A DNA stretch of 58,067 nucleotides, taken from positions 1 to 58,067 of the forward strand of contig DAOTVD010000126.1 in assembly GCA_034437075.1 (NCBI GenBank), given 5' to 3'. Shown in pieces: positions 49,148-58,067 of the stretch; position 1 is the first letter of the stretch, and each line of letters starts with the position of its first letter. The notes under the pieces were generated by a model. The model was given only the letters and a program-made list of their open reading frames with translations. It had not been told where the DNA came from and did not search any database. Source of the stretch: Anaerolineae bacterium (GTDB taxonomy: Bacteria > Chloroflexota > Anaerolineae > Aggregatilineales > J027). Position numbers and translations under genes: made by a program.

Positions 49148-49837
49148 ATGACCGTAACCTCTGTGATGCAAGAATATCTCGCTGAAACCTACCGCATCGC
49201 CTCCTATCAGGATAGCGCCTACGTGAGTACCTCCGAATTGGCCGACCGCATGCGCAAGACTGCGCCCGCCGTGGTGCGCATGGCCAGCCGACTGCGCGAG
49301 GCCGGGCTCATCGAACACGAACCTTATCAGGGTATCCGCCTGACCCCCGCTGGCGAGCGCGAAGCCCTGCTGAGCATCCGCCGCCACCGGATTGTCGAAG
49401 TCTTTTTGATGGCCACCATGGGCTATGGCTGGGAAGAAGTGCACCCCGAAGCCGAAGCGCTCAGCGCAGTCGTTAGCGATGATCTGCTGAGCCGGATGGA
49501 ACGCATGGCCGGGTTCCCGCAGCGTTGCCCACATGGCGAGCCAATCCCTTCGGCCACAGGCAACATGCCCCACATTGATGATATGTCGCTGGGTGATTTG
49601 GAACCGCAACAAGCCCTAACTGTGAGCCGCGTCAACACCCACGAGCCCGATAAACTCGCGTATTTGCGCGAAATCGGCCTGGTACCCGGCCAAGATATTG
49701 AATTGGTATCGCGCGCGCCCTTCAATGGGCCGTTGCGCTTGCGCATCGGGCGCGATGAACAGGTCATCGGGATGGAGCTCGCGCGCGCGTTGCGCGTCTG
49801 CCAACAAGGCCAATACGAACTGCAACCCCTGGGTTAG
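49148..49837 (+). CDS. DtxR/MntR family metal-dependent regulator with C-terminal FeoA domain
   Basis: MQEYL, HTH, RRHRIVEVFL, HPEAEALS, CPHGEPIP and FeoA (YLREIGLVPG...APFNGP). Confidence 0.95.
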   Translation: MTVTSVMQEYLAETYRIASYQDSAYVSTSELADRMRKTAPAVVRMASRLREAGLIEHEPYQGIRLTPAGEREALLSIRRHRIVEVFLMATMGYGWEEVHPEAEALSAVVSDDLLSRMERMAGFPQRCPHGEPIPSATGNMPHIDDMSLGDLEPQQALTVSRVNTHEPDKLAYLREIGLVPGQDIELVSRAPFNGPLRLRIGRDEQVIGMELARALRVCQQGQYELQPLG

Positions 49838-51486
49838 GGAACGACTGGCACCTCGGCCAATGTGCCTTGCTCGAAATCGTACCAGGGCGCGGCGCTCCAC
49901 CCTTGCAGCCCTTCATAAGCAATCAACACCCATTCATTATCGGCAGTCCGCCCCAATACCGCGACCGTCTCGCCCCATGGGACATCCCCCACGCGCTGCG
50001 CGGAGGGGCGCGGTTCGCTACGAATGCGCAGATTCGCGTTCGCGCGAGCGATGAACGCACTTTGGGGCAAGCTGATCTCGGTTGGGTCGCCCTCTAGCGC
50101 GGGGCCGACCCTTACATCGCCATCTGGGCCGACAAACAACACGCCTTCAGGGTCTTGTAACGTGATGGCTGGGTCTGCCGGATCGGCCACGGGGGGTGGC
50201 GCGCTGCCATCAGTGATGGGCAAACTGGTAATTTGCCCGCTGAGCGTCAAGAATTCCGTCATCGACCAGCCAACGACCCCATCCACGCGCAATTGCACCC
50301 ATACATTATCCGCCGAGCGCCCCAGCGCGGTGTACTGTTCGCCCCGGCTGATGGTGCGTAGCGGGGTCGCGGTGGTGCTGGGCTGGGGCCGAAAACGTAA
50401 CGGCCCTGCGCGGACAGTCACGGGCATGGCGGCGGCGGCGGTTGGCGCGGCGCGCTCGGGGCAGGGGGGCGCGCTGCCATTCGCCCCAGCCAAGATGGAA
50501 TTACACCCATCCGGGAAGAAATTCGTCCCGATGGGCGGGTCCCACGTCAGGAACAAGTTAGCGGCTTGAATATCATCCGCGTGTTCGACCACAATCGTAT
50601 GGCGCCCAGCGGGGATTTCTACGGCCACGGTGAAGCTCTGCCCCTGGGCAAACGCCGCCTGATTCAGCACTTCGATACCATTGATCAGCACGCGCGCGCG
50701 GTCATCGGCGCGCAGCGTGAAGGTATACACCCCCGCCGGAAAATCGACCGCGCGCGTCCAGCGCGCCGACCAGCCGTCCGCGTTAACACCTGTTGCCGGG
50801 GCATCCAGGCCCGGTATTACCGCGATGCCATCGGCGGGCGCGCTGCCCGTGGCGACCACCTCGCCGCTTAAATCGGGCGAATTGAAATACTCAATGGCCC
50901 AGGGTTCGCCCACCACCGCATTATTGCTGAGTGCCGTGCCCGTGTCGGTCGTCGGGGCGGCGTCATTGGCATTGTTGGCGGTTGTTGTGGCGGATGGCGG
51001 CGACGCGCCGCCACTGGCCAGCGACCAGGTTAAACGTACTTGGGCTGGGCCCGACCAATTGGCCATTTCTAGCGTGATGAACGCCGTTTGGCCGGGGTTC
51101 TGGATGGTATGGCGCGCGCTGAGCGTGGTTGGCCCTTCGCTGGGGTTCAAGGCATCAATCAACGGGCTCCCGTTGATGTACAGCCGCACGCCATCATCCA
51201 CCTGTGCGGTAAATAGATACGTCCCCGGCGCAGCAAAAGACTGGGTACTCGTCCAACGCACCGAGAAGTTATCGGGGTTGATGCCCGGCGCGGGCGCATC
51301 CAGGCCCCAGTTAAAATCCAGCAGCGGCGTACAGTCCGAATAGACGACGCTGCCGCTCAGATCAACCGAATTATAATAACGCGCTTCCCAATTGGGCGGC
51401 GCGCAGGTTTGGCCTTGGGCCGGGGAGAGCGCCCCCCAGCCCCCAAACAACATAACAATGGCACATATCCAAGCAAGCTGTTTCAT
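49834..51486 (-). CDS. Secreted protein with two PA14 domains and two SH3b domains
   Basis: Signal peptide; DNFSVRW...DDGVRLYING and DGWSARW...DDRARVLING; then LRFRPQP...WVQLRVDGVVGWS and LRIRSEP...WVLIAYEGLQGWS. Confidence 0.88.
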   Translation of the reverse strand: MKQLAWICAIVMLFGGWGALSPAQGQTCAPPNWEARYYNSVDLSGSVVYSDCTPLLDFNWGLDAPAPGINPDNFSVRWTSTQSFAAPGTYLFTAQVDDGVRLYINGSPLIDALNPSEGPTTLSARHTIQNPGQTAFITLEMANWSGPAQVRLTWSLASGGASPPSATTTANNANDAAPTTDTGTALSNNAVVGEPWAIEYFNSPDLSGEVVATGSAPADGIAVIPGLDAPATGVNADGWSARWTRAVDFPAGVYTFTLRADDRARVLINGIEVLNQAAFAQGQSFTVAVEIPAGRHTIVVEHADDIQAANLFLTWDPPIGTNFFPDGCNSILAGANGSAPPCPERAAPTAAAAMPVTVRAGPLRFRPQPSTTATPLRTISRGEQYTALGRSADNVWVQLRVDGVVGWSMTEFLTLSGQITSLPITDGSAPPPVADPADPAITLQDPEGVLFVGPDGDVRVGPALEGDPTEISLPQSAFIARANANLRIRSEPRPSAQRVGDVPWGETVAVLGRTADNEWVLIAYEGLQGWSAAPWYDFEQGTLAEVPVVP

Positions 51487-51489
51487 AGC

Positions 51490-51513
51490 AAAAAAGCCCG
51501 GTCGAAGCCGGGC
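51490..51513 (-). terminator. Rho-independent terminator between the two PA14 genes
   Basis: Minus strand GCCCGG-CTTCGA-CCGGGC-TTTTTT, 18 nt after the stop at 51532. Confidence 0.75.
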
Positions 51514-51531
51514 CGTTGATTATCGTAAGCG

Positions 51532-52590
51532 TTACGGGGCGATTTGCTCGGGCGTAAAGGTCGCGATACCCCGGTCGGGGCATAGGGGCGCATTACCGCC
51601 AAGACCAGCGGTATAGTGCCCATTACAGCCATCCGGGAATAGCATCGTGCCCACGGGCGGGTCCCAAGTGACGAAAAGATGCGCGGGGCCGCTGTTGTCG
51701 AAATGCTCCACGGCAATCGTATGACGGCCTGCCGTCAGCGTGACGCTACCCGTGCCATTTGCACTGAGCGGCACGACTTCGGCCCCATCCACCAACAGAC
51801 GCGCGCTATCATCGGCCCGAACCGTGAAGGTATACGTGCCCGCTGGGAAATCCACCGTGCGCACCCAGCGCGACGACCAACCATCGGCGTTAAAACCTGG
51901 GCGCGGCGGGTTCTCGGCATAATCCAAGCTGATGCCATCCGCGACATGGATCGATTCGCCCGTGTGCGGTTCGGTGAGGTTCGGGTTATTGAAATGGGTG
52001 ATGGCCCAGATATTGCCACCCCCCGCCGGGAAGAGGCTATTATCGCGCGTCAGCCCCGGGTTATGATCGTCAGTGGCGCCTGGCGAACCGCCTGCGACCA
52101 ACGACCAGGCCAAGTACAATTGCGAAGGGCCGCTGTGGTCAACGTGTTCGATGACGATTTCGGCAGTCTGGCCTGCGCGGGCCACTTCATATTGCATACG
52201 GCGTTCGGCGTAATCGTTGGTCGCGTTATTATCTTGAATGAGGGTCGCGCCATTCACGCGCAAGGTGACATCCCCCTGGCCCCATACCGTGAATTCATAG
52301 GTTCCGGCAGTCGGGAACGCCTGGGTAGAGCGCCACCGCGACGAAAAGCCGTCGTTATTGATCCCCTGCAACGGGACACCATCGCCCCAATTGAATTCGA
52401 TCATCCGGCGGCACAAGACATAGGCGGGAGTGCCCGCAAAACTCGCATTGTCATAAAATTCGCCCGTCCACGCAGGTACGGCGCATGGTTCAGTTTCTAA
52501 CGGATAATTGTCCTGGGCCGCAACGGAGGCGCTAAAGACCACCGTTAACAGGGCCAGAGGCAATACAAATGCAAAAAATCGCTTTGACAT
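51532..52590 (-). CDS. Secreted double-PA14 protein, paralog of 49834..51486 without SH3
   Basis: Signal peptide; DGFSSRW and DGWSSRW...DDSARLLVDG; shared WDPP.GT..FPDGCN...CP motif. Confidence 0.88.
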   Translation of the reverse strand: MSKRFFAFVLPLALLTVVFSASVAAQDNYPLETEPCAVPAWTGEFYDNASFAGTPAYVLCRRMIEFNWGDGVPLQGINNDGFSSRWRSTQAFPTAGTYEFTVWGQGDVTLRVNGATLIQDNNATNDYAERRMQYEVARAGQTAEIVIEHVDHSGPSQLYLAWSLVAGGSPGATDDHNPGLTRDNSLFPAGGGNIWAITHFNNPNLTEPHTGESIHVADGISLDYAENPPRPGFNADGWSSRWVRTVDFPAGTYTFTVRADDSARLLVDGAEVVPLSANGTGSVTLTAGRHTIAVEHFDNSGPAHLFVTWDPPVGTMLFPDGCNGHYTAGLGGNAPLCPDRGIATFTPEQIAP

Positions 52591-52698
52591 AACATGTTCC
52601 CCTGATGCAATATGTTGCAGGTCAGTATGCCCTTATCCTACAGGCTTTAAGGCACCAGCGAAAGCACAGCAAGGTAAGCGTTGTTCAAACGGTGCGTG

Positions 52699-53061
52699 TT
52701 AATCGAGATACTCGCGGATGACACGCAGTAAATCGGGCGAGCTAATGGGCTTGGGTAGATAGTTATCGCAGCCTGCCGCCAGAAAACGCTCGCGGTCGCC
52801 GCGCATGGCGTTAGCCGTCAGCGCCACCACCGGGATGCCTTCGGTTTCCGGGTTGGCTTTGATGATGCGCGTGGCCTCAATGCCATCAATACCCGGAATA
52901 CTGATGTCCATCAAGATCAAGTCCGGTAGCTCTTTGGTGGCCATTTCGACCCCCGTTTCGCCATCATCGGCTTCTAGCACTTCGTAGCCTTTGGCCTTCA
53001 GAATTTTGCGCACCAAGCGTTTATTTTGATAATTATCTTCCACATAAAGTATCCGTTTCAT
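52699..53061 (-). CDS. Single-domain response regulator, DivK-like
   Basis: ILYVEDN, LILMDISIPGIDG, VALTANAMRGDRE and YLPKPI. Confidence 0.95.
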   Translation of the reverse strand: MKRILYVEDNYQNKRLVRKILKAKGYEVLEADDGETGVEMATKELPDLILMDISIPGIDGIEATRIIKANPETEGIPVVALTANAMRGDRERFLAAGCDNYLPKPISSPDLLRVIREYLD

Positions 53062-53068
53062 GGATTCC

Positions 53069-55153
53069 TCACTGCTGTTTGCTCAGGGTTTGGTGAACAT
53101 GTTGGACGAGCGCCTCTCGGTTGAGCCCCGCTTTTTGCCAGATCGACACACCACGCGCCGCAAAAAATGCTTGCTCATCGGCTGTCAGGTCTTTGGCAGT
53201 TAAGACGACCACAGGCGTCTGCGAAAAGGGTTTGTTTTCTCTAATCTTATCTACCAGAATACCACCACTTTCGACATCCGGGAGCATTAAATCCAGCACA
53301 ATAAGCCCCGGAGTGATATTCGGCAAGCTTTCCAGTGCTTCTTGGCCCGAATACACCTCATACACGGCATACTGTTGGGTGGCTTCTAACATGCGTTTGA
53401 CCAAGCGCGCGTCTTTGCGGTTGTCATCAATGACCATAATCGGTGTACGGTTCACTGAGTCGAACGCTTGGCGCAATTCGCTGGCCACGTCGCTCGCTTT
53501 GGCGGTAATCACCGTATCTTCGGCCACATCGTCGCCGCCCAGGGTTTGCACCACATGGTCTACCAATTGGCGCGTATTGAAATTGCCCTTTTGCCAGACG
53601 GACTCCGCCTCGCCCAGGCGTTGGTAATCGGCGGCGTTCAACGCCTTGGCCGAAATCACCATCACCGGGACATTCGCCGTCTCGGGGTCGCGCTTGAGCG
53701 CGTCTAGCAAGTCGAAGCCGTCCATTTCGGGCATGGTCAAATCCGAGATCACCAGGTCTGGTTTGCGGTGTTTCACGAGGTCGATACCATCCAGCGGATT
53801 TTGCGCCTCGAAGACGCGATAATTGCGGTAGCTTTGCAACAAGCGGCGGATCAAACGGCTATCTTGCGGATTATCATCAATGACGACGATGGTCGTCACC
53901 TGTTCATCCAGCCGTTCCAGTGCAGCGCTAAGCCCTTCTTCCACCTTGGTGGGTTGGGGGGTGCCGCCTTCGGCAGCTTCTTGGCCTAGTTGCAAATCCA
54001 ACACATATTGGTCTTCCAGAATGTGCTTTTCGGCGGGGAAGGTATGGCCCGAGCAATTCACGACGACCGTCTGCTCTGGCGTTACGAGCCCTTGCGCGGC
54101 CAGCTTTTCCAGCCCAGCGAAGGCCACCGCTGCGGCAGGCTCCACGCTATAGCCTTCGATGCGCGCCAGGCGGCGCATCGCGCGGAAGGCTTCGCCATCA
54201 TCAACGGCCACCATGGTGCCCTCGGTGGCTTTGCAGGCCGCGCGCAGCACGACATACCCCTGGCCCGGCGCGCCCGTCGAGAGCACCGCGATGCGCGTAT
54301 GCGGCACCACAGGCTCGGCGGTTTCGGCGTCCTGCTGCCAGGCTTTGACCATCGGTGAGCAGCCTTCCACCTGAATGATGCCAATCCGCGGAATCCGGTC
54401 AATCAGGCCGATGCGTTGCAATTGTTGAAAGCCATGGTAAATGGCCACCGGGCCGATTCCGCCGCTCACGGCCTGAATATACCAATCCGGGGTGCGCCAT
54501 TTGCCATCTTCCAGGGGCATATAGCGCGATAGCTGCTCGGCGATTTCGAACGCGATGGTCTTCAGCCCTTCGCGCCCCGCAACCCCCGCAATACCGGGGT
54601 CGTAATGCAGCTTGCGCCGCGCGGCGAAGTCTTTGGCCACCTGTTTCGATTGGTCGTAAGTGCCCGCGATCTTCACGACTTCCGCGCCATATAGCGCCAG
54701 TTCGCGCAGTTTCTCGTTGGGTACCATGCTCGTCAGAAAAATCCACAAGCGGATGTTGGCTCGCGCGCAATAGGCCGCATATGCAGCGGCTTTGTTGCCC
54801 GTGGAGGCCAGCACCGCCTCGTCGATGCCGTCTTGGCGCAACATATTCACGGCCATGGCCCCCTGGCGATCCTTAAAGCTGCCTGTGGGGGTCTGGCGTT
54901 CGTCTTTTATATAAACCTGTTGCAGGCCCAGTTCCTCGGCCAGGCGTTTAGCGCGTACCAATGGCGTCCAGCCTTCGCCCATGGTGATGAGATCATCATA
55001 TGACTTAAGCGGCAGCAGTTCTTCATAACGCCAAAGGCTGGTATCTCGCCCTTGCAAGATACCAGGCCAACTTTGGGAAAGCCCTGCTTCGTTGTAACGC
55101 GCCTCTTGCCAACCGTGGTCTGTGGTGATGATGTCTTGCAGTTGGGATGGCAT
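53069..55153 (-). CDS. Threonine-synthase-like fold-type II PLP enzyme fused to two C-terminal receiver domains
   Basis: LWRY, GEGWTPL, PTGSFKDR (PLP Lys at 54872-54874), ASTGN, KTIAFEIAEQL, EPAAA and NCSGH; REC1 IDDN/SDLTMP/ISAK/QKG; REC2 IDDN/LDLMLP/LTAK/QKA. Confidence 0.92.
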   Translation of the reverse strand: MPSQLQDIITTDHGWQEARYNEAGLSQSWPGILQGRDTSLWRYEELLPLKSYDDLITMGEGWTPLVRAKRLAEELGLQQVYIKDERQTPTGSFKDRQGAMAVNMLRQDGIDEAVLASTGNKAAAYAAYCARANIRLWIFLTSMVPNEKLRELALYGAEVVKIAGTYDQSKQVAKDFAARRKLHYDPGIAGVAGREGLKTIAFEIAEQLSRYMPLEDGKWRTPDWYIQAVSGGIGPVAIYHGFQQLQRIGLIDRIPRIGIIQVEGCSPMVKAWQQDAETAEPVVPHTRIAVLSTGAPGQGYVVLRAACKATEGTMVAVDDGEAFRAMRRLARIEGYSVEPAAAVAFAGLEKLAAQGLVTPEQTVVVNCSGHTFPAEKHILEDQYVLDLQLGQEAAEGGTPQPTKVEEGLSAALERLDEQVTTIVVIDDNPQDSRLIRRLLQSYRNYRVFEAQNPLDGIDLVKHRKPDLVISDLTMPEMDGFDLLDALKRDPETANVPVMVISAKALNAADYQRLGEAESVWQKGNFNTRQLVDHVVQTLGGDDVAEDTVITAKASDVASELRQAFDSVNRTPIMVIDDNRKDARLVKRMLEATQQYAVYEVYSGQEALESLPNITPGLIVLDLMLPDVESGGILVDKIRENKPFSQTPVVVLTAKDLTADEQAFFAARGVSIWQKAGLNREALVQHVHQTLSKQQ

Positions 55154-55181
55154 GTGGTTCTAAGAGTTTGCCTTTCGTGCG

Positions 55182-58067
55182 TTAACTTGCATCGGCTGTA
55201 TCAGTTTGAGCGACGGGCATTGTAAACCAGAAGGTCGAGCCCGCGCCGAGTTGGCTTTCGACATGAATGTCGCCACCGTGCATTTCCACCAATTGGCGGG
55301 TGATGGCCAGGCCTAGCCCGGTGCCCCCCACGCGGCGCGTAGACGACTGGTCAGCTTGGCGGAAACGCTCGAAGATGGTTTCCAGCTTATCCTCGCTGAT
55401 GCCCGTCCCGGTGTCGATGATTTCAAAACGGATCATCGCCTCGTCTGTGCGACGAACACGCACAGTGATCGTCCCTTCATCCGTGAACTTCGCCGCATTC
55501 GAGAGCAGATTATTGATGACCTGCTGCGCGCGCAAGCGGTCGGCTTGCATCATTGGCAGGTCGTCTTGCAGGTCGGTGAGTAGCTCAACCGGCTTGTCTT
55601 TGACCAAAATGCGCGAGGTATCCAGCAAGCTATTCAAGAAGCCTTCGATTTCGATCGGTTCGGTGACCAAATCTAACTGCCCGGCTTCGATCTTGGCTAA
55701 GTCCAGAATGTCATTGATCAGGCTGAGCAGCAGCTTACCAGAGCTATAGATCGCGCCGACATCTTCCTGAACTTCTTCGTTGATCGGCCCGTCGATGCCA
55801 TCCAAGATGACTTCGGCATAGCCGATGATGGAATTGAGCGGCGTGCGCAACTCATGCGACATACTGGCCAGGAATTCACTTTTCAGGCGGTCGAATTCGC
55901 GCAACTGCTCGGCGGTTTCTACCTGCTCGGCGTATAAGCGCGCAGTCTGCACCGCCACCGCGACCTGGTCGGCCAAGGTGCGCTTGATGCGCACGTCTTC
56001 GTCCGTGAAGCGGTTGAGTTGTTCGGACTGCACGTCCAGCACGCCAATCAGTTGGTCGGCCACGACCAACGGCACGGCGAGCTCCGCCCGGGTTTGCGGC
56101 AACAAGGGATTGGGCAAGAAGTCCGGGTTCGCTTGCACATCGTTCACGATCACACCCTGGCGTTCGCGCGCGGCGCGGGCCACCAAACTATGTTCGTGGG
56201 AGAGCGCAATCGCATGATGCGCGCTCACCATACGATCCCCCGCCGCGCCTGCGCCGGCTACCAGTTCGAGGCGCTCAGTTTCGTCATTCATCAGGTAAAT
56301 ATGCGCATGATAGAGATCAAACCGCTCTTTTGCCAGGTCCGACACACTCTTGAGCAAGCGCGAGACGTTCAATTCGGTGGCGGCGGTCGCGCTCACCTGG
56401 GCCACGGTTTGTAGCTCGGCGGCGCGTTTTTCCGTCTGGGTCAGCGCTTGCGCATTCTGGTAGGCCACCGCGATCTGATAGGCCAGTGTGCTTTGCACGC
56501 GCACATCTTGCTCGCTAAAGCGACCGCGCTCTTGGGCTTGCACGTCCAGCACGCCAAGCAGGCGGTCACCCACAATCAAGGGCACGGCCATTTCGGACTC
56601 CGTAGAGGGCAAAAGCGGGTTCGGCAAGAAGCCATCCGCCAGCGCAACATGGTTCTCGATGACGGCTGCGCGGTCGCGCGCGGCACGCGCCACGATACTA
56701 TCTTCACGGCTTAGCGCGATGCGGTGCCCATGTTCCACCATCTGGCGGCCTGCTTCGCCCGCACCCGCCGTCAGGGTCAGGTACTTTTCATCGTCGTCCA
56801 GCAGATAAATATGCGCGTGGTAGAGCCCGAAGTTCTCTTTTGTGAGTTCGGTCACCGACCAGAGCAAGTCTTCAATGTTGGTATTGGTGGCCGCCTGCGC
56901 CCCCACCTCAGACACAGTGGCCATTTCACGCGCCATGCGCTGGGTTTCGCGTTCTTGCGCGCGCCGTTCGGTGATGTCCTGAAAGCTGACCAGGCTCGCC
57001 ACGATGTTGCCTTCTTCGTCGCGCACGGGCGCGCCATCAATTTCCAGCAGAATACGGTTGCCATCCGGTCGTTCGACTTCCATATCATCAATGGACACCG
57101 TTTCACCATATAGGCCGCGCACCACGGGCGCTTCTTCGGTGGGGTAAATGTCGTTCGTGCCGGCTTTATACGCGGCGTAGATTTGCGTCAGGTCATCTTC
57201 AATCGCGCCTGGCGAGATGCCGCGCCCCAGCAATTCTTCGGCACGCGGATTGCTCAAGATGGGGGTGCCATCCGGAGCGCTGACCACGAAGATACCCGAC
57301 GGGATATTGTTCAGGACCGCTTGTAGCAAACGGCGCTGCGACTCGATTTCTTCGCGTTGGGCCTGTCGTTCGGTGATGTCTTGGAAGGCAATCACGGAGG
57401 CGATCACCTCGCCCTCTGCATTGCGGATGGGCGCGCCGGAGACTTCCAACAAGATGCGCTCGTCGCCCCGGTGCACTTCCATGTCGTCAATATAAGCTTC
57501 TTCGCCCATCAAACCGCGCACAATCGGCGTCTTCTCGGTGGGGTAGGGCTCGTCCGTGCCTGCTCGATAAGCCGCATAAACCTGTACAAGGTCTTCGCTA
57601 CGCGCATCCGGCGAGATACCGCGCCCCAGCAATTCCTCCGCACGAGAGTTCGACAGCAGCGGCGTGCCGTCTGGCGCTGCGACCACGAAGATACCCGACG
57701 GGATTTGATTCAGGATGGCTTCCAACAGACGGCGCTGGGACTCTAGTTCTTCTTCTTGCGCTTTACGCTCGCGGATGTCCGTCATGATCGTCCCGATATT
57801 CTGCGGGTTGCCATCGTCATCACGCACGATGAATAGCGTTTGGTCTACCGGAATGACCGTGCCATCGCGCGAAATGATCGTGTTTTCGGCGCGCCAGGTG
57901 TCGTTTTCTAAGATTTCGGGCACGCCTTTGTTCAGCACCAATTGGGCCCCGGCTTCGTCGTGGTAGTCCGGAATAAGCATTTGCTGCGCTTCGGCTAGGT
58001 CGGCAAAACCCATCATCTTGATACCACCCGGGTTCAGGTAGATGATCTCGCCTTCCATCGTCGTCAG
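55182..58067 (-). CDS. Multi-sensor histidine kinase (at least 3 PAS, 2 GAF, HisKA, HATPase); 5' end lies outside the window
   Basis: The frame stays open to the edge (LTT-MEGE, mid-PAS). SHELRTPLN, NLLSNAAKFT, DTGTGI and GGTGLGL are present; no TM or receiver domain in the visible part. Confidence 0.96.
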   Translation of the reverse strand: MTTMEGEIIYLNPGGIKMMGFADLAEAQQMLIPDYHDEAGAQLVLNKGVPEILENDTWRAENTIISRDGTVIPVDQTLFIVRDDDGNPQNIGTIMTDIRERKAQEEELESQRRLLEAILNQIPSGIFVVAAPDGTPLLSNSRAEELLGRGISPDARSEDLVQVYAAYRAGTDEPYPTEKTPIVRGLMGEEAYIDDMEVHRGDERILLEVSGAPIRNAEGEVIASVIAFQDITERQAQREEIESQRRLLQAVLNNIPSGIFVVSAPDGTPILSNPRAEELLGRGISPGAIEDDLTQIYAAYKAGTNDIYPTEEAPVVRGLYGETVSIDDMEVERPDGNRILLEIDGAPVRDEEGNIVASLVSFQDITERRAQERETQRMAREMATVSEVGAQAATNTNIEDLLWSVTELTKENFGLYHAHIYLLDDDEKYLTLTAGAGEAGRQMVEHGHRIALSREDSIVARAARDRAAVIENHVALADGFLPNPLLPSTESEMAVPLIVGDRLLGVLDVQAQERGRFSEQDVRVQSTLAYQIAVAYQNAQALTQTEKRAAELQTVAQVSATAATELNVSRLLKSVSDLAKERFDLYHAHIYLMNDETERLELVAGAGAAGDRMVSAHHAIALSHEHSLVARAARERQGVIVNDVQANPDFLPNPLLPQTRAELAVPLVVADQLIGVLDVQSEQLNRFTDEDVRIKRTLADQVAVAVQTARLYAEQVETAEQLREFDRLKSEFLASMSHELRTPLNSIIGYAEVILDGIDGPINEEVQEDVGAIYSSGKLLLSLINDILDLAKIEAGQLDLVTEPIEIEGFLNSLLDTSRILVKDKPVELLTDLQDDLPMMQADRLRAQQVINNLLSNAAKFTDEGTITVRVRRTDEAMIRFEIIDTGTGISEDKLETIFERFRQADQSSTRRVGGTGLGLAITRQLVEMHGGDIHVESQLGAGSTFWFTMPVAQTDTADAS

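Follow-up and report, generated by a model that had tools for sequence, protein, structure and literature searches.

A threonine synthase-like PLP domain joined to two receiver domains in a predicted two-component module of Anaerolineae

The window analysed here is a stretch of 58,067 nucleotides (nt) from an Anaerolineae bacterium (Chloroflexota, Aggregatilineales; assembly GCA_034437075.1, contig DAOTVD010000126.1). Our subject is one protein encoded on its reverse strand, the 694-amino-acid P0001, which joins an N-terminal pyridoxal phosphate (PLP) domain of the threonine synthase (ThrC) type to two C-terminal receiver domains (PALP-REC-REC). Pfam places the PALP domain at residues 56-369 (E = 1.3e-67) and finds Response_reg in two stretches (E = 6.4e-37). 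A sensor histidine kinase gene ends 28 nt before the P0001 start codon, and the gene for a lone receiver protein begins 7 nt past the P0001 stop, which is operon-like spacing for all three genes. No terminator-like signal above chance was found between them, and a promoter and terminator scan of positions 52300-55400 gave counts at the level of shuffled sequence. The features are collected in Table 1.

Table 1. Positions of the P0001 gene, its domains and motifs, and its two partner genes in the window
Feature	Positions	Strand	Basis or remark
P0001 gene (PALP-REC-REC)	53069..55153	-	Open reading frame (ORF); Pfam; at least 200 homologues with the same architecture
ThrC-fold PLP domain, about residues 36-390	53984..55048	-	phmmer, Foldseek
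SFKDRQ, residues 92-97; Schiff-base K94 (codon 54872-54874), family-specific Q97	54863..54880	-	Homologue alignment
Asn loop STGNK, residues 117-121 (canonical ThrC STGNT)	54791..54805	-	Aligned to T88 of Thermus ThrC and T165 of the genome's own ThrC
Remodelled substrate loop, residues 185-199, D-P-G...G-R-E-G-L-K-T	54557..54601	-	Replaces canonical L-N-S-x-N-P-x-R-x-E-G-Q-K-T
Cofactor-phosphate loop AVSGGIGP, residues 228-235	54449..54472	-	Replaces canonical G-N-x-G-N
Family-specific motif, residues 366-390, starting N-C-S-G-H-T-F-P-A-E-K-H	53984..54058	-	Highest conservation in the protein
Receiver domain 1, about residues 421-540; phospho-acceptor D471 (53741-53743)	53534..53893	-	Pfam
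Receiver domain 2, about residues 570-690; phospho-acceptor D621 (53291-53293)	53084..53446	-	Pfam
Sensor histidine kinase, PAS-PAS-GAF-GAF-HisKA-HATPase	55182..58067	-	ORF and translation; incomplete, reaches the contig end
Lone receiver protein, 120 aa	52699..53061	-	ORF

The fold of the PLP domain is that of ThrC. A preliminary description of the window, made from the letters alone, had proposed a structural alignment to the Thermus thermophilus or Mycobacterium tuberculosis enzyme, and the top Foldseek matches are indeed the ThrC structures 2d1f, 1v7c and 2zsj, with target template modelling (TM) scores of 0.80-0.82, E values of 1e-23 to 1e-24 and 26-31 per cent identity. Cysteate synthase, dehydratases and TrpB follow. 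Together with the Pfam PALP match, this puts the domain among ThrC-type members of fold-type II. The query was an AlphaFold2 model built with the family alignment (mean predicted local distance difference test score, pLDDT, 79; predicted TM score, pTM, 0.59), where confidence is high for the PLP and receiver domains but pLDDT falls below 50 in two linkers (residues 375-417 and 540-566).

The cofactor site is intact, and it is so throughout the family. Counts of residue conservation here and below refer to 201 aligned family members. K94 and Q97 occur in 200 of them, and the remaining one has a gap; canonical ThrC has Gly where the family has Q97. In the Asn loop S117, G119 and N120 are invariant, as are S230, G232 and G234 of the cofactor-phosphate loop, with G231 in 200/201. 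S368, the counterpart of the ThrC Thr that faces the pyridine nitrogen, is also invariant, so that K94, N120, S230/G232/G234 and S368, the full set of ThrC cofactor ligands, are all kept. The preliminary description had seen the Schiff-base Lys (in SFKDR) and STGN, and both hold across the alignment; AVSGGIG, which it gave as the phosphate loop, is residues 228-234 (54452-54472), just outside the range quoted for the finding. The most conserved part of the whole protein lies further on, at residues 366-390 (83 per cent mean identity), where H370, E375 and K376 are invariant alongside S368 and where canonical ThrC has T-G-H-G-L-K-D-P in place of the N-C-S-G-H-T motif. C265 and Y300 are family-specific and equally fixed, and R287 is found in 166/201.

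The substrate side of the pocket is different. The preliminary description had held that the ThrC substrate signature is missing from a segment at about 54557-54595 (-), and this segment, GIAGVAGREGLKT, lies exactly there, as residues 187-199. That comparison, made against a consensus, is now backed by two sets of computed alignments, one by phmmer against the PDB ThrCs 2zsj (Aquifex), 2d1f (M. tuberculosis) and 1uim (Thermus), with E values of 1e-35 to 1e-38, and one by hhalign between a 52-member family profile and four canonical-motif ThrCs, the genome's own included. Both match up the Lys, S-T-G-N and E-G-x-K-T with ThrC. Counting Thermus residues from the phmmer alignment, T88 is faced by K121, N154 by P186, S155 by G187, R160 by G193 (with R194 next to it), N188 by G232 and N191 by P235. 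In 1V7C, the structure of a complex of Thermus ThrC with an analogue (Omi et al. 2003), T88, N154, S155, R160 and N188 reportedly hold the substrate phosphate. In the computed alignments NSxNPxR of ThrC has become xGxxxxG, the Arg displaced by one residue and out of register, and S-G-G-I-G-P stands in place of the G-N-x-G-N loop. In hhalign G232 and P235 fall opposite N266 and N269 of the genome's own ThrC. A MAFFT alignment of the loop is off by one residue relative to the other two methods, and in all three alike the canonical Asn, Ser and Arg are never faced by Asn, Ser or Arg in P0001. The replaced columns are invariant in seven canonical-motif ThrCs of different phyla (Aquifex, M. tuberculosis, Thermus, the genome's own and three more).

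The new residues are themselves conserved. In the substrate loop G187, K198 and T199 are invariant and position 185 is Asp or Glu in 198/201. Position 194 is Arg in 106 members, Lys in seventy-two and something else in twenty-three, and position 121 is Lys in 138/201 and Ala in 63/201 but Thr, the canonical residue, in none. The differences from ThrC are not due to chance, being fixed or nearly fixed across the 201 homologues. More broadly, ninety-seven columns show no variation among four canonical ThrCs; of these the family keeps forty-three and does not keep fifty-four, and in twenty-two of the ninety-seven it holds a different residue that is at least 89 per cent conserved. Because these twenty-two columns changed to another conserved residue, the divergence looks like a functional shift under continued selection and not like decay.

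Loss of the Asn/Ser/Arg/Asn set argues against O-phosphohomoserine being bound in the manner of ThrC. The preliminary description had gone further and treated binding of the substrate phosphate as gone, which was overstated. K121 occupies the T88 position, R194 or K194 adjoins that of R160, R287 is nearby, and in all 201 members at least one of positions 121 and 194 is basic; for these reasons an anionic, even a phosphorylated, substrate may be possible for the PLP domain. Compensation between positions 121 and 194 was considered as statistical support and rejected, as the tree requires one change per position only.

P0001 belongs to a large family. Searching proteins gave at least 120 clusters of PALP and REC architecture, at 55-86 per cent identity, and species-representative genomes, when scanned, contained 492 stretches that code for a relative, from about 490 species genomes. 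The best eighty of the 492 are all Chloroflexota/Anaerolineae (Anaerolineales, Aggregatilineales, Caldilineaceae, Ardenticatenales and Thermoflexus). Mean pairwise identity is 68 per cent for the PLP domain, 72 per cent for the first receiver and 50 per cent for the second, and 31 per cent of PLP-domain positions are at least 98 per cent invariant. A tree of 130 representatives groups the SGGxG-loop proteins in a supported clade (SH-aLRT, the Shimodaira-Hasegawa-like approximate likelihood ratio test, 96) and the canonical-motif ThrCs in a separate one (SH-aLRT 97), both nested in a very diverse ThrC-like superfamily. From this conservation we conclude that the PALP-REC-REC family is a real, conserved and selected feature of Anaerolineae.

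All six NCBIfam equivalog models for ThrC score P0001 under their cut-offs. The best is NF006050 (258 bits versus a cut-off of 303), followed by NF004170 (183 versus 421), TIGR00260 (159 versus 167.1), NF005035 (127 versus 301), NF004996 (125 versus 266) and NF006205 (122 versus 358). The cysteate synthase model TIGR03844 also stays below its threshold (117.5 versus 324.9 bits; PDB 9k3c, E = 7.6e-12). A separate canonical thrC, which the preliminary description had suggested looking for together with hom and thrB, is present in the same genome on contig C260 (P0121; 245-246 bits to TIGR00260), and other parts of the genome carry hom and thrB-like genes. P0121 has every sequence hallmark of ThrC, with STGNT, L-N-S-I-N-P-F-R-L-E-G-Q-K-S, G-G-N-L-G-N and a zinc ribbon. 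Scores below the cut-offs, a separate clade, replaced columns and a separate canonical thrC together support the view that P0001 is not an ordinary housekeeping threonine synthase. In a survey at class level TIGR00260 exceeded its cut-off in thirty-nine of forty-one genomes, some of these matches being receiver-fused forms; the stop-to-stop frames of this survey blur fused and unfused forms, and the separation is clear only for the genome studied here. Genes of the P0001 family carry the automatic label 'threonine synthase' (JGI names), which the active-site analysis makes unsafe, and an ESM Atlas look-up gave only generic 'threonine synthase family' names.

Two further ThrC-like genes occur in this genome. 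One encodes a one-receiver paralogue of 559 amino acids (P0122; L002:1288-2967, corresponding to G000 contig C467:31933-33612) that combines a zinc-ribbon ThrC-like domain bearing the derived motifs with a single receiver. It stands directly behind a hybrid histidine kinase, scores over the TIGR00260 cut-off, and has the contig end just past it. The other, the fourth ThrC-like gene of the genome, is split over two contig ends (L013:2-685 and L012:1399-1998, both on the reverse strand; G000 contigs C420 and C361). It is unfused and has a zinc ribbon and a cofactor loop of its own, G-S-V-G-D-G; judged by eye from translations, it lies just downstream of ORFs resembling carbamate kinase and ornithine carbamoyltransferase.

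The zinc ribbon deserves separate mention, as the preliminary description had counted its absence, with an in-frame stop just upstream of the ATG, among the departures from ThrC. For P0001 itself this is right. The first thirty-five residues hold no Cys, the four-Cys ribbon of NF006050 is missing, and the reading frame cannot be extended back to one, because the 28 nt between the kinase stop and the ATG include a TAG in the same frame, 9 nt before the ATG. It does not hold for the family, in which 175/201 members have four N-terminal Cys with the consensus CxxC...CxxC. The only full-length members with no N-terminal Cys are P0001 and its 86 per cent identical relative P0002, and since the ribbon is otherwise so widely retained, its loss is a recent lineage-specific deletion and not a family trait.

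Both receivers are complete and retain their phospho-acceptor residues in all or nearly all members. In the first (PF00072), D426/D427, D471, S501 and K522 are all invariant; in the second, D621 and K674 do not vary, D577 is found in 200/201, position 576 is Asp or Glu (D576 in P0001) and all members have Thr or Ser at position 652 (T652 in P0001). The linker before the first receiver is also conserved. Within residues 375-417 (53903-54031), E375, K376, L379, E380, G407, A411, L415 and E417 are invariant in the 52-member alignment, and this segment may serve as an interface, or as a signalling helix, becoming ordered only in a complex. The conserved helices at 375-418, which run from the PLP domain to the first receiver, are candidate transmitters of a phosphorylation signal.

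We examined the surroundings of the gene in eighty-two related loci, the testable subset differing for each neighbour. In 44/73 testable loci the gene immediately upstream, in the same orientation, encodes a homologous kinase core, which with the 28-nt spacing in the window predicts that kinase and P0001 are a cognate pair. A homologue of the lone receiver is directly downstream in 63/77, at 31-85 per cent identity (mostly 50-85 per cent), and forms the second-largest cluster when all flanking ORFs are clustered. That clustering of the eighty-two loci gave the kinase, the lone receiver and PA14-domain proteins only, and no metabolic or transport partner was conserved. In the window, genes for two secreted PA14-domain proteins follow that of the lone receiver (49834-52590, reverse strand). 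PA14 homologues lie 3' of the module in 31/69 loci, in closer relatives only, Aggregatilinea lenta included, and the association may reflect inherited synteny rather than a functional link. A. lenta is a cultured carrier, which makes the question of function testable: its orthologue P0067 has the same operon arrangement. The kinase upstream of that orthologue has 1272 amino acids and a HAMP domain (L017:1501-7829) and is preceded by genes for a periplasmic binding protein and a HAMP-GAF protein; the module may therefore take its input from an extracellular ligand.

Relatives of the PLP domain also occur in other contexts. Two standalone sisters of the derived clade (P0145 and P0159) are each preceded by an ATP-grasp-like gene (L105:223-2605; L108:37-5624; L107:1568-8128), and the two ATP-grasp proteins are 26 per cent identical to each other (E = 1e-18). 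NeuB and glycosyltransferase genes accompany the pair in L107 and L108, with a DegT gene in L108 and a radical-SAM/methyltransferase gene in L107. These clusters, of a glycan biosynthetic type, look like a pathway for an amino-acid-decorated sugar; the clade from which the hint comes (P0145, P0149 and P0159) is only about 38-40 per cent identical. Among other standalone relatives, P0127 is found among housekeeping genes and P0134 and P0173 on short contigs, settings that gave no clue to function.

A different use of the fold is seen in P0196 (491 aa) and P0198 (499 aa), which combine a ThrC-like domain with a PadR DNA-binding domain and have the Schiff-base Lys replaced by Leu or Ile (S-F-L/I-D-R). 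Their shorter clade-mates P0210 and P0271 show the same replacement. The Atlas cluster with the PadR architecture is mostly from Thorarchaeota, and from their sequences these Lys-less proteins look like pseudoenzyme-type transcription factors. A further group of 610-633 amino acids (P0180, P0189, P0200, P0208, P0238, P0263 and P0266) has a ThrC-like domain with near-canonical loops and a C-terminal LeuA allosteric/dimerisation domain. Its Atlas cluster is mostly from Methylomirabilota, and its members are possibly ThrC-type enzymes under amino-acid feedback.

We put the probability that P0001 is a phosphorylation-controlled PLP enzyme with a substrate other than that of ThrC at roughly one-half. 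As such it would be an enzyme-type response regulator in which the N-terminal ThrC-fold domain is catalytic and acts on something other than O-phosphohomoserine, the likely chemistry being a beta/gamma elimination, a replacement or a deamination of an amino acid whose side chain may be anionic. D471 and/or D621 would be phosphorylated by the PAS/GAF histidine kinase encoded upstream, and phosphorylation would turn the PLP domain on or off allosterically, via the conserved inter-domain helices and/or dimerisation, much as the C-terminal regulatory domains of IlvA and cystathionine beta-synthase (CBS) do. The lone receiver would compete for or drain the same phosphoryl groups. Catalysis is favoured because the cofactor apparatus is strictly kept while the pocket is conserved but different, because the standalone sisters lie in biosynthetic clusters, and because the presumed regulators, the PadR fusions, dropped the Lys that the P0001 family retains. 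The preliminary description had offered a new substrate or a sensing-only role. Its view that this is not an ordinary ThrC stands, and between its two options the cofactor ligands, the conserved divergence and the sister clusters lean towards catalysis.

Several observations weigh against a catalytic, phosphorylation-controlled P0001. PLP-fold sensor domains of the GabR/MocR type also keep the Lys, and retention of the cofactor site is for that reason no proof of turnover. In P0001 the PLP domain precedes the receivers, the opposite of the usual order of receiver and then output. Three receivers on one kinase suit a phosphorelay or phosphate sink, and the PLP domain could be an input. The operon has no metabolic partner or transporter that would hint at a substrate, domain packing in the model is uncertain (the pTM and linker values given above), and the roles of T88, N154, S155, R160 and N188 as phosphate ligands are taken from the Thermus complex 1V7C together with the invariance of these columns.

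We regard as a less probable but still serious alternative that the PLP domain is a ligand-binding input holding an amino acid as external aldimine with no productive turnover. The ligand would gate phosphoryl flow among the two receivers of P0001 and the lone receiver, and the single-domain protein would be the real output. An N-terminal PLP domain ahead of the receivers is placed as inputs usually are, the three receivers and single kinase come with no Hpt, DNA-binding or nucleotide-cyclase output, and no metabolic or transport gene is conserved nearby. The replaced substrate-phosphate columns also speak for a sensor, and the ThrC-like fold has already been recruited to regulators in the PadR fusions. 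However, those fusions dropped the Lys, whereas the P0001 family keeps its cofactor ligands across all 201 members, and the derived clade has standalone relatives, located in biosynthetic clusters, that carry no output domain at all.

It is improbable that P0001 is a true ThrC, a kinase-regulated isozyme in which a remodelled anion site of K121, R194 and R287 holds O-phosphohomoserine. The top structure and sequence matches are all ThrC, the E-G-x-K-T loop end and S-T-G-N are retained, the basic residues at 121 or 194 and at 287 are as widespread as described above, and the paralogue P0122 does exceed the TIGR00260 cut-off. Yet P0001 misses all six equivalog cut-offs, N154, S155, R160, N188 and T88 are all replaced, fifty-four of the ninety-seven canonical-invariant columns are lost, the clade is distinct, the same genome has a canonical thrC, and the 121/194 pattern, one change each on the tree, lends no statistical weight. 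Least probable of all is a dead scaffold whose PLP fold supplies only a dimer interface or docking surface around a structural cofactor: ThrC enzymes are dimers, and the top-conserved residues 366-390 lie outside the classical substrate loops and are poorly modelled, as an interface segment might be, but Lys, Asn loop, Gly loop and pyridine-nitrogen Ser would then have been retained needlessly over about 200 sequences down to about 50 per cent identity.

Two-component systems usually end in gene regulation, second-messenger turnover or chemotaxis, and here a whole bacterial class retains a module whose response regulator has no part other than its receivers and the PLP domain. If it is catalytic, phosphorylation would directly switch an amino-acid reaction, a new kind of response-regulator output, and the activity would be a new ThrC-derived one beside cysteate synthase and MetM. 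A sensor role, on the other hand, would make it an input domain of a new class, merging a metabolic cue with the signal of the PAS/GAF kinase in filamentous Anaerolineae. A full-text literature search found no description of a ThrC-like, PALP or fold-type II PLP domain as input or output of a two-component system, and a ThrC-derived PLP domain wired into a two-component module of kinase, PLP-REC-REC protein and lone receiver is an undescribed variant.

Among known systems the closest is ThrC itself (EC 4.2.3.1; 1UIM and 1V7C from Thermus, 2D1F from M. tuberculosis, 2ZSJ from Aquifex and 6CGQ from Bacillus subtilis), which P0001 resembles in its fold, the Lys of S-F-K-D-R, S-T-G-N, E-G-x-K-T and the pyridine-nitrogen Ser/Thr. 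It differs by T88K, N154P, S155G and R160G, by SGGIG for GNxGN, and by its two receivers, its sub-cut-off scores and its non-housekeeping status. The zinc-ribbon ThrC-like family NF006050 (PRK08197) has the same CxxC...CxxC ribbon as most P0001-family members. The P0001 family differs from it in carrying C-terminal receivers, and P0001 and P0002 have lost the ribbon. The paralogue P0122 shares FKDRQ, the SGG-x-GP loop, G-C-x-P-M, N-C-[ST]-G-H-T, the clade and a preceding histidine kinase. It has one receiver and not two, Val or Ala at position 121 and no Arg at 194, and its kinase is a hybrid, whereas the two-receiver family pairs with a lone receiver.

Precedents for a ThrC fold with a new reaction are cysteate synthase (TIGR03844; PDB 9K3C) and the ThrC-derived homocysteine synthase MetM (Hasebe et al. 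2024, cited in PMC12172450). Both retain a phosphorylated substrate, and neither has a receiver domain. IlvA, with ACT-like domains, and CBS, with CBS domains, have the same order as P0001, a catalytic PALP domain and then C-terminal regulatory domains, and in both the regulatory domains act allosterically on the catalytic domain. The regulator there binds a metabolite, whereas in P0001 it is a kinase-driven phospho-receiver. The GGGG loop of the dehydratases resembles the Gly-rich cofactor loop of P0001, and in sequence P0001 is weakly similar to IlvA (E about 1e-8). CheB, PleD and RpfG likewise join a receiver to an enzyme domain, with the domain order of CheB and PleD reversed relative to P0001. 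GabR and other MocR proteins also use a PLP fold in signalling, but GabR has the aminotransferase fold of fold-type I.

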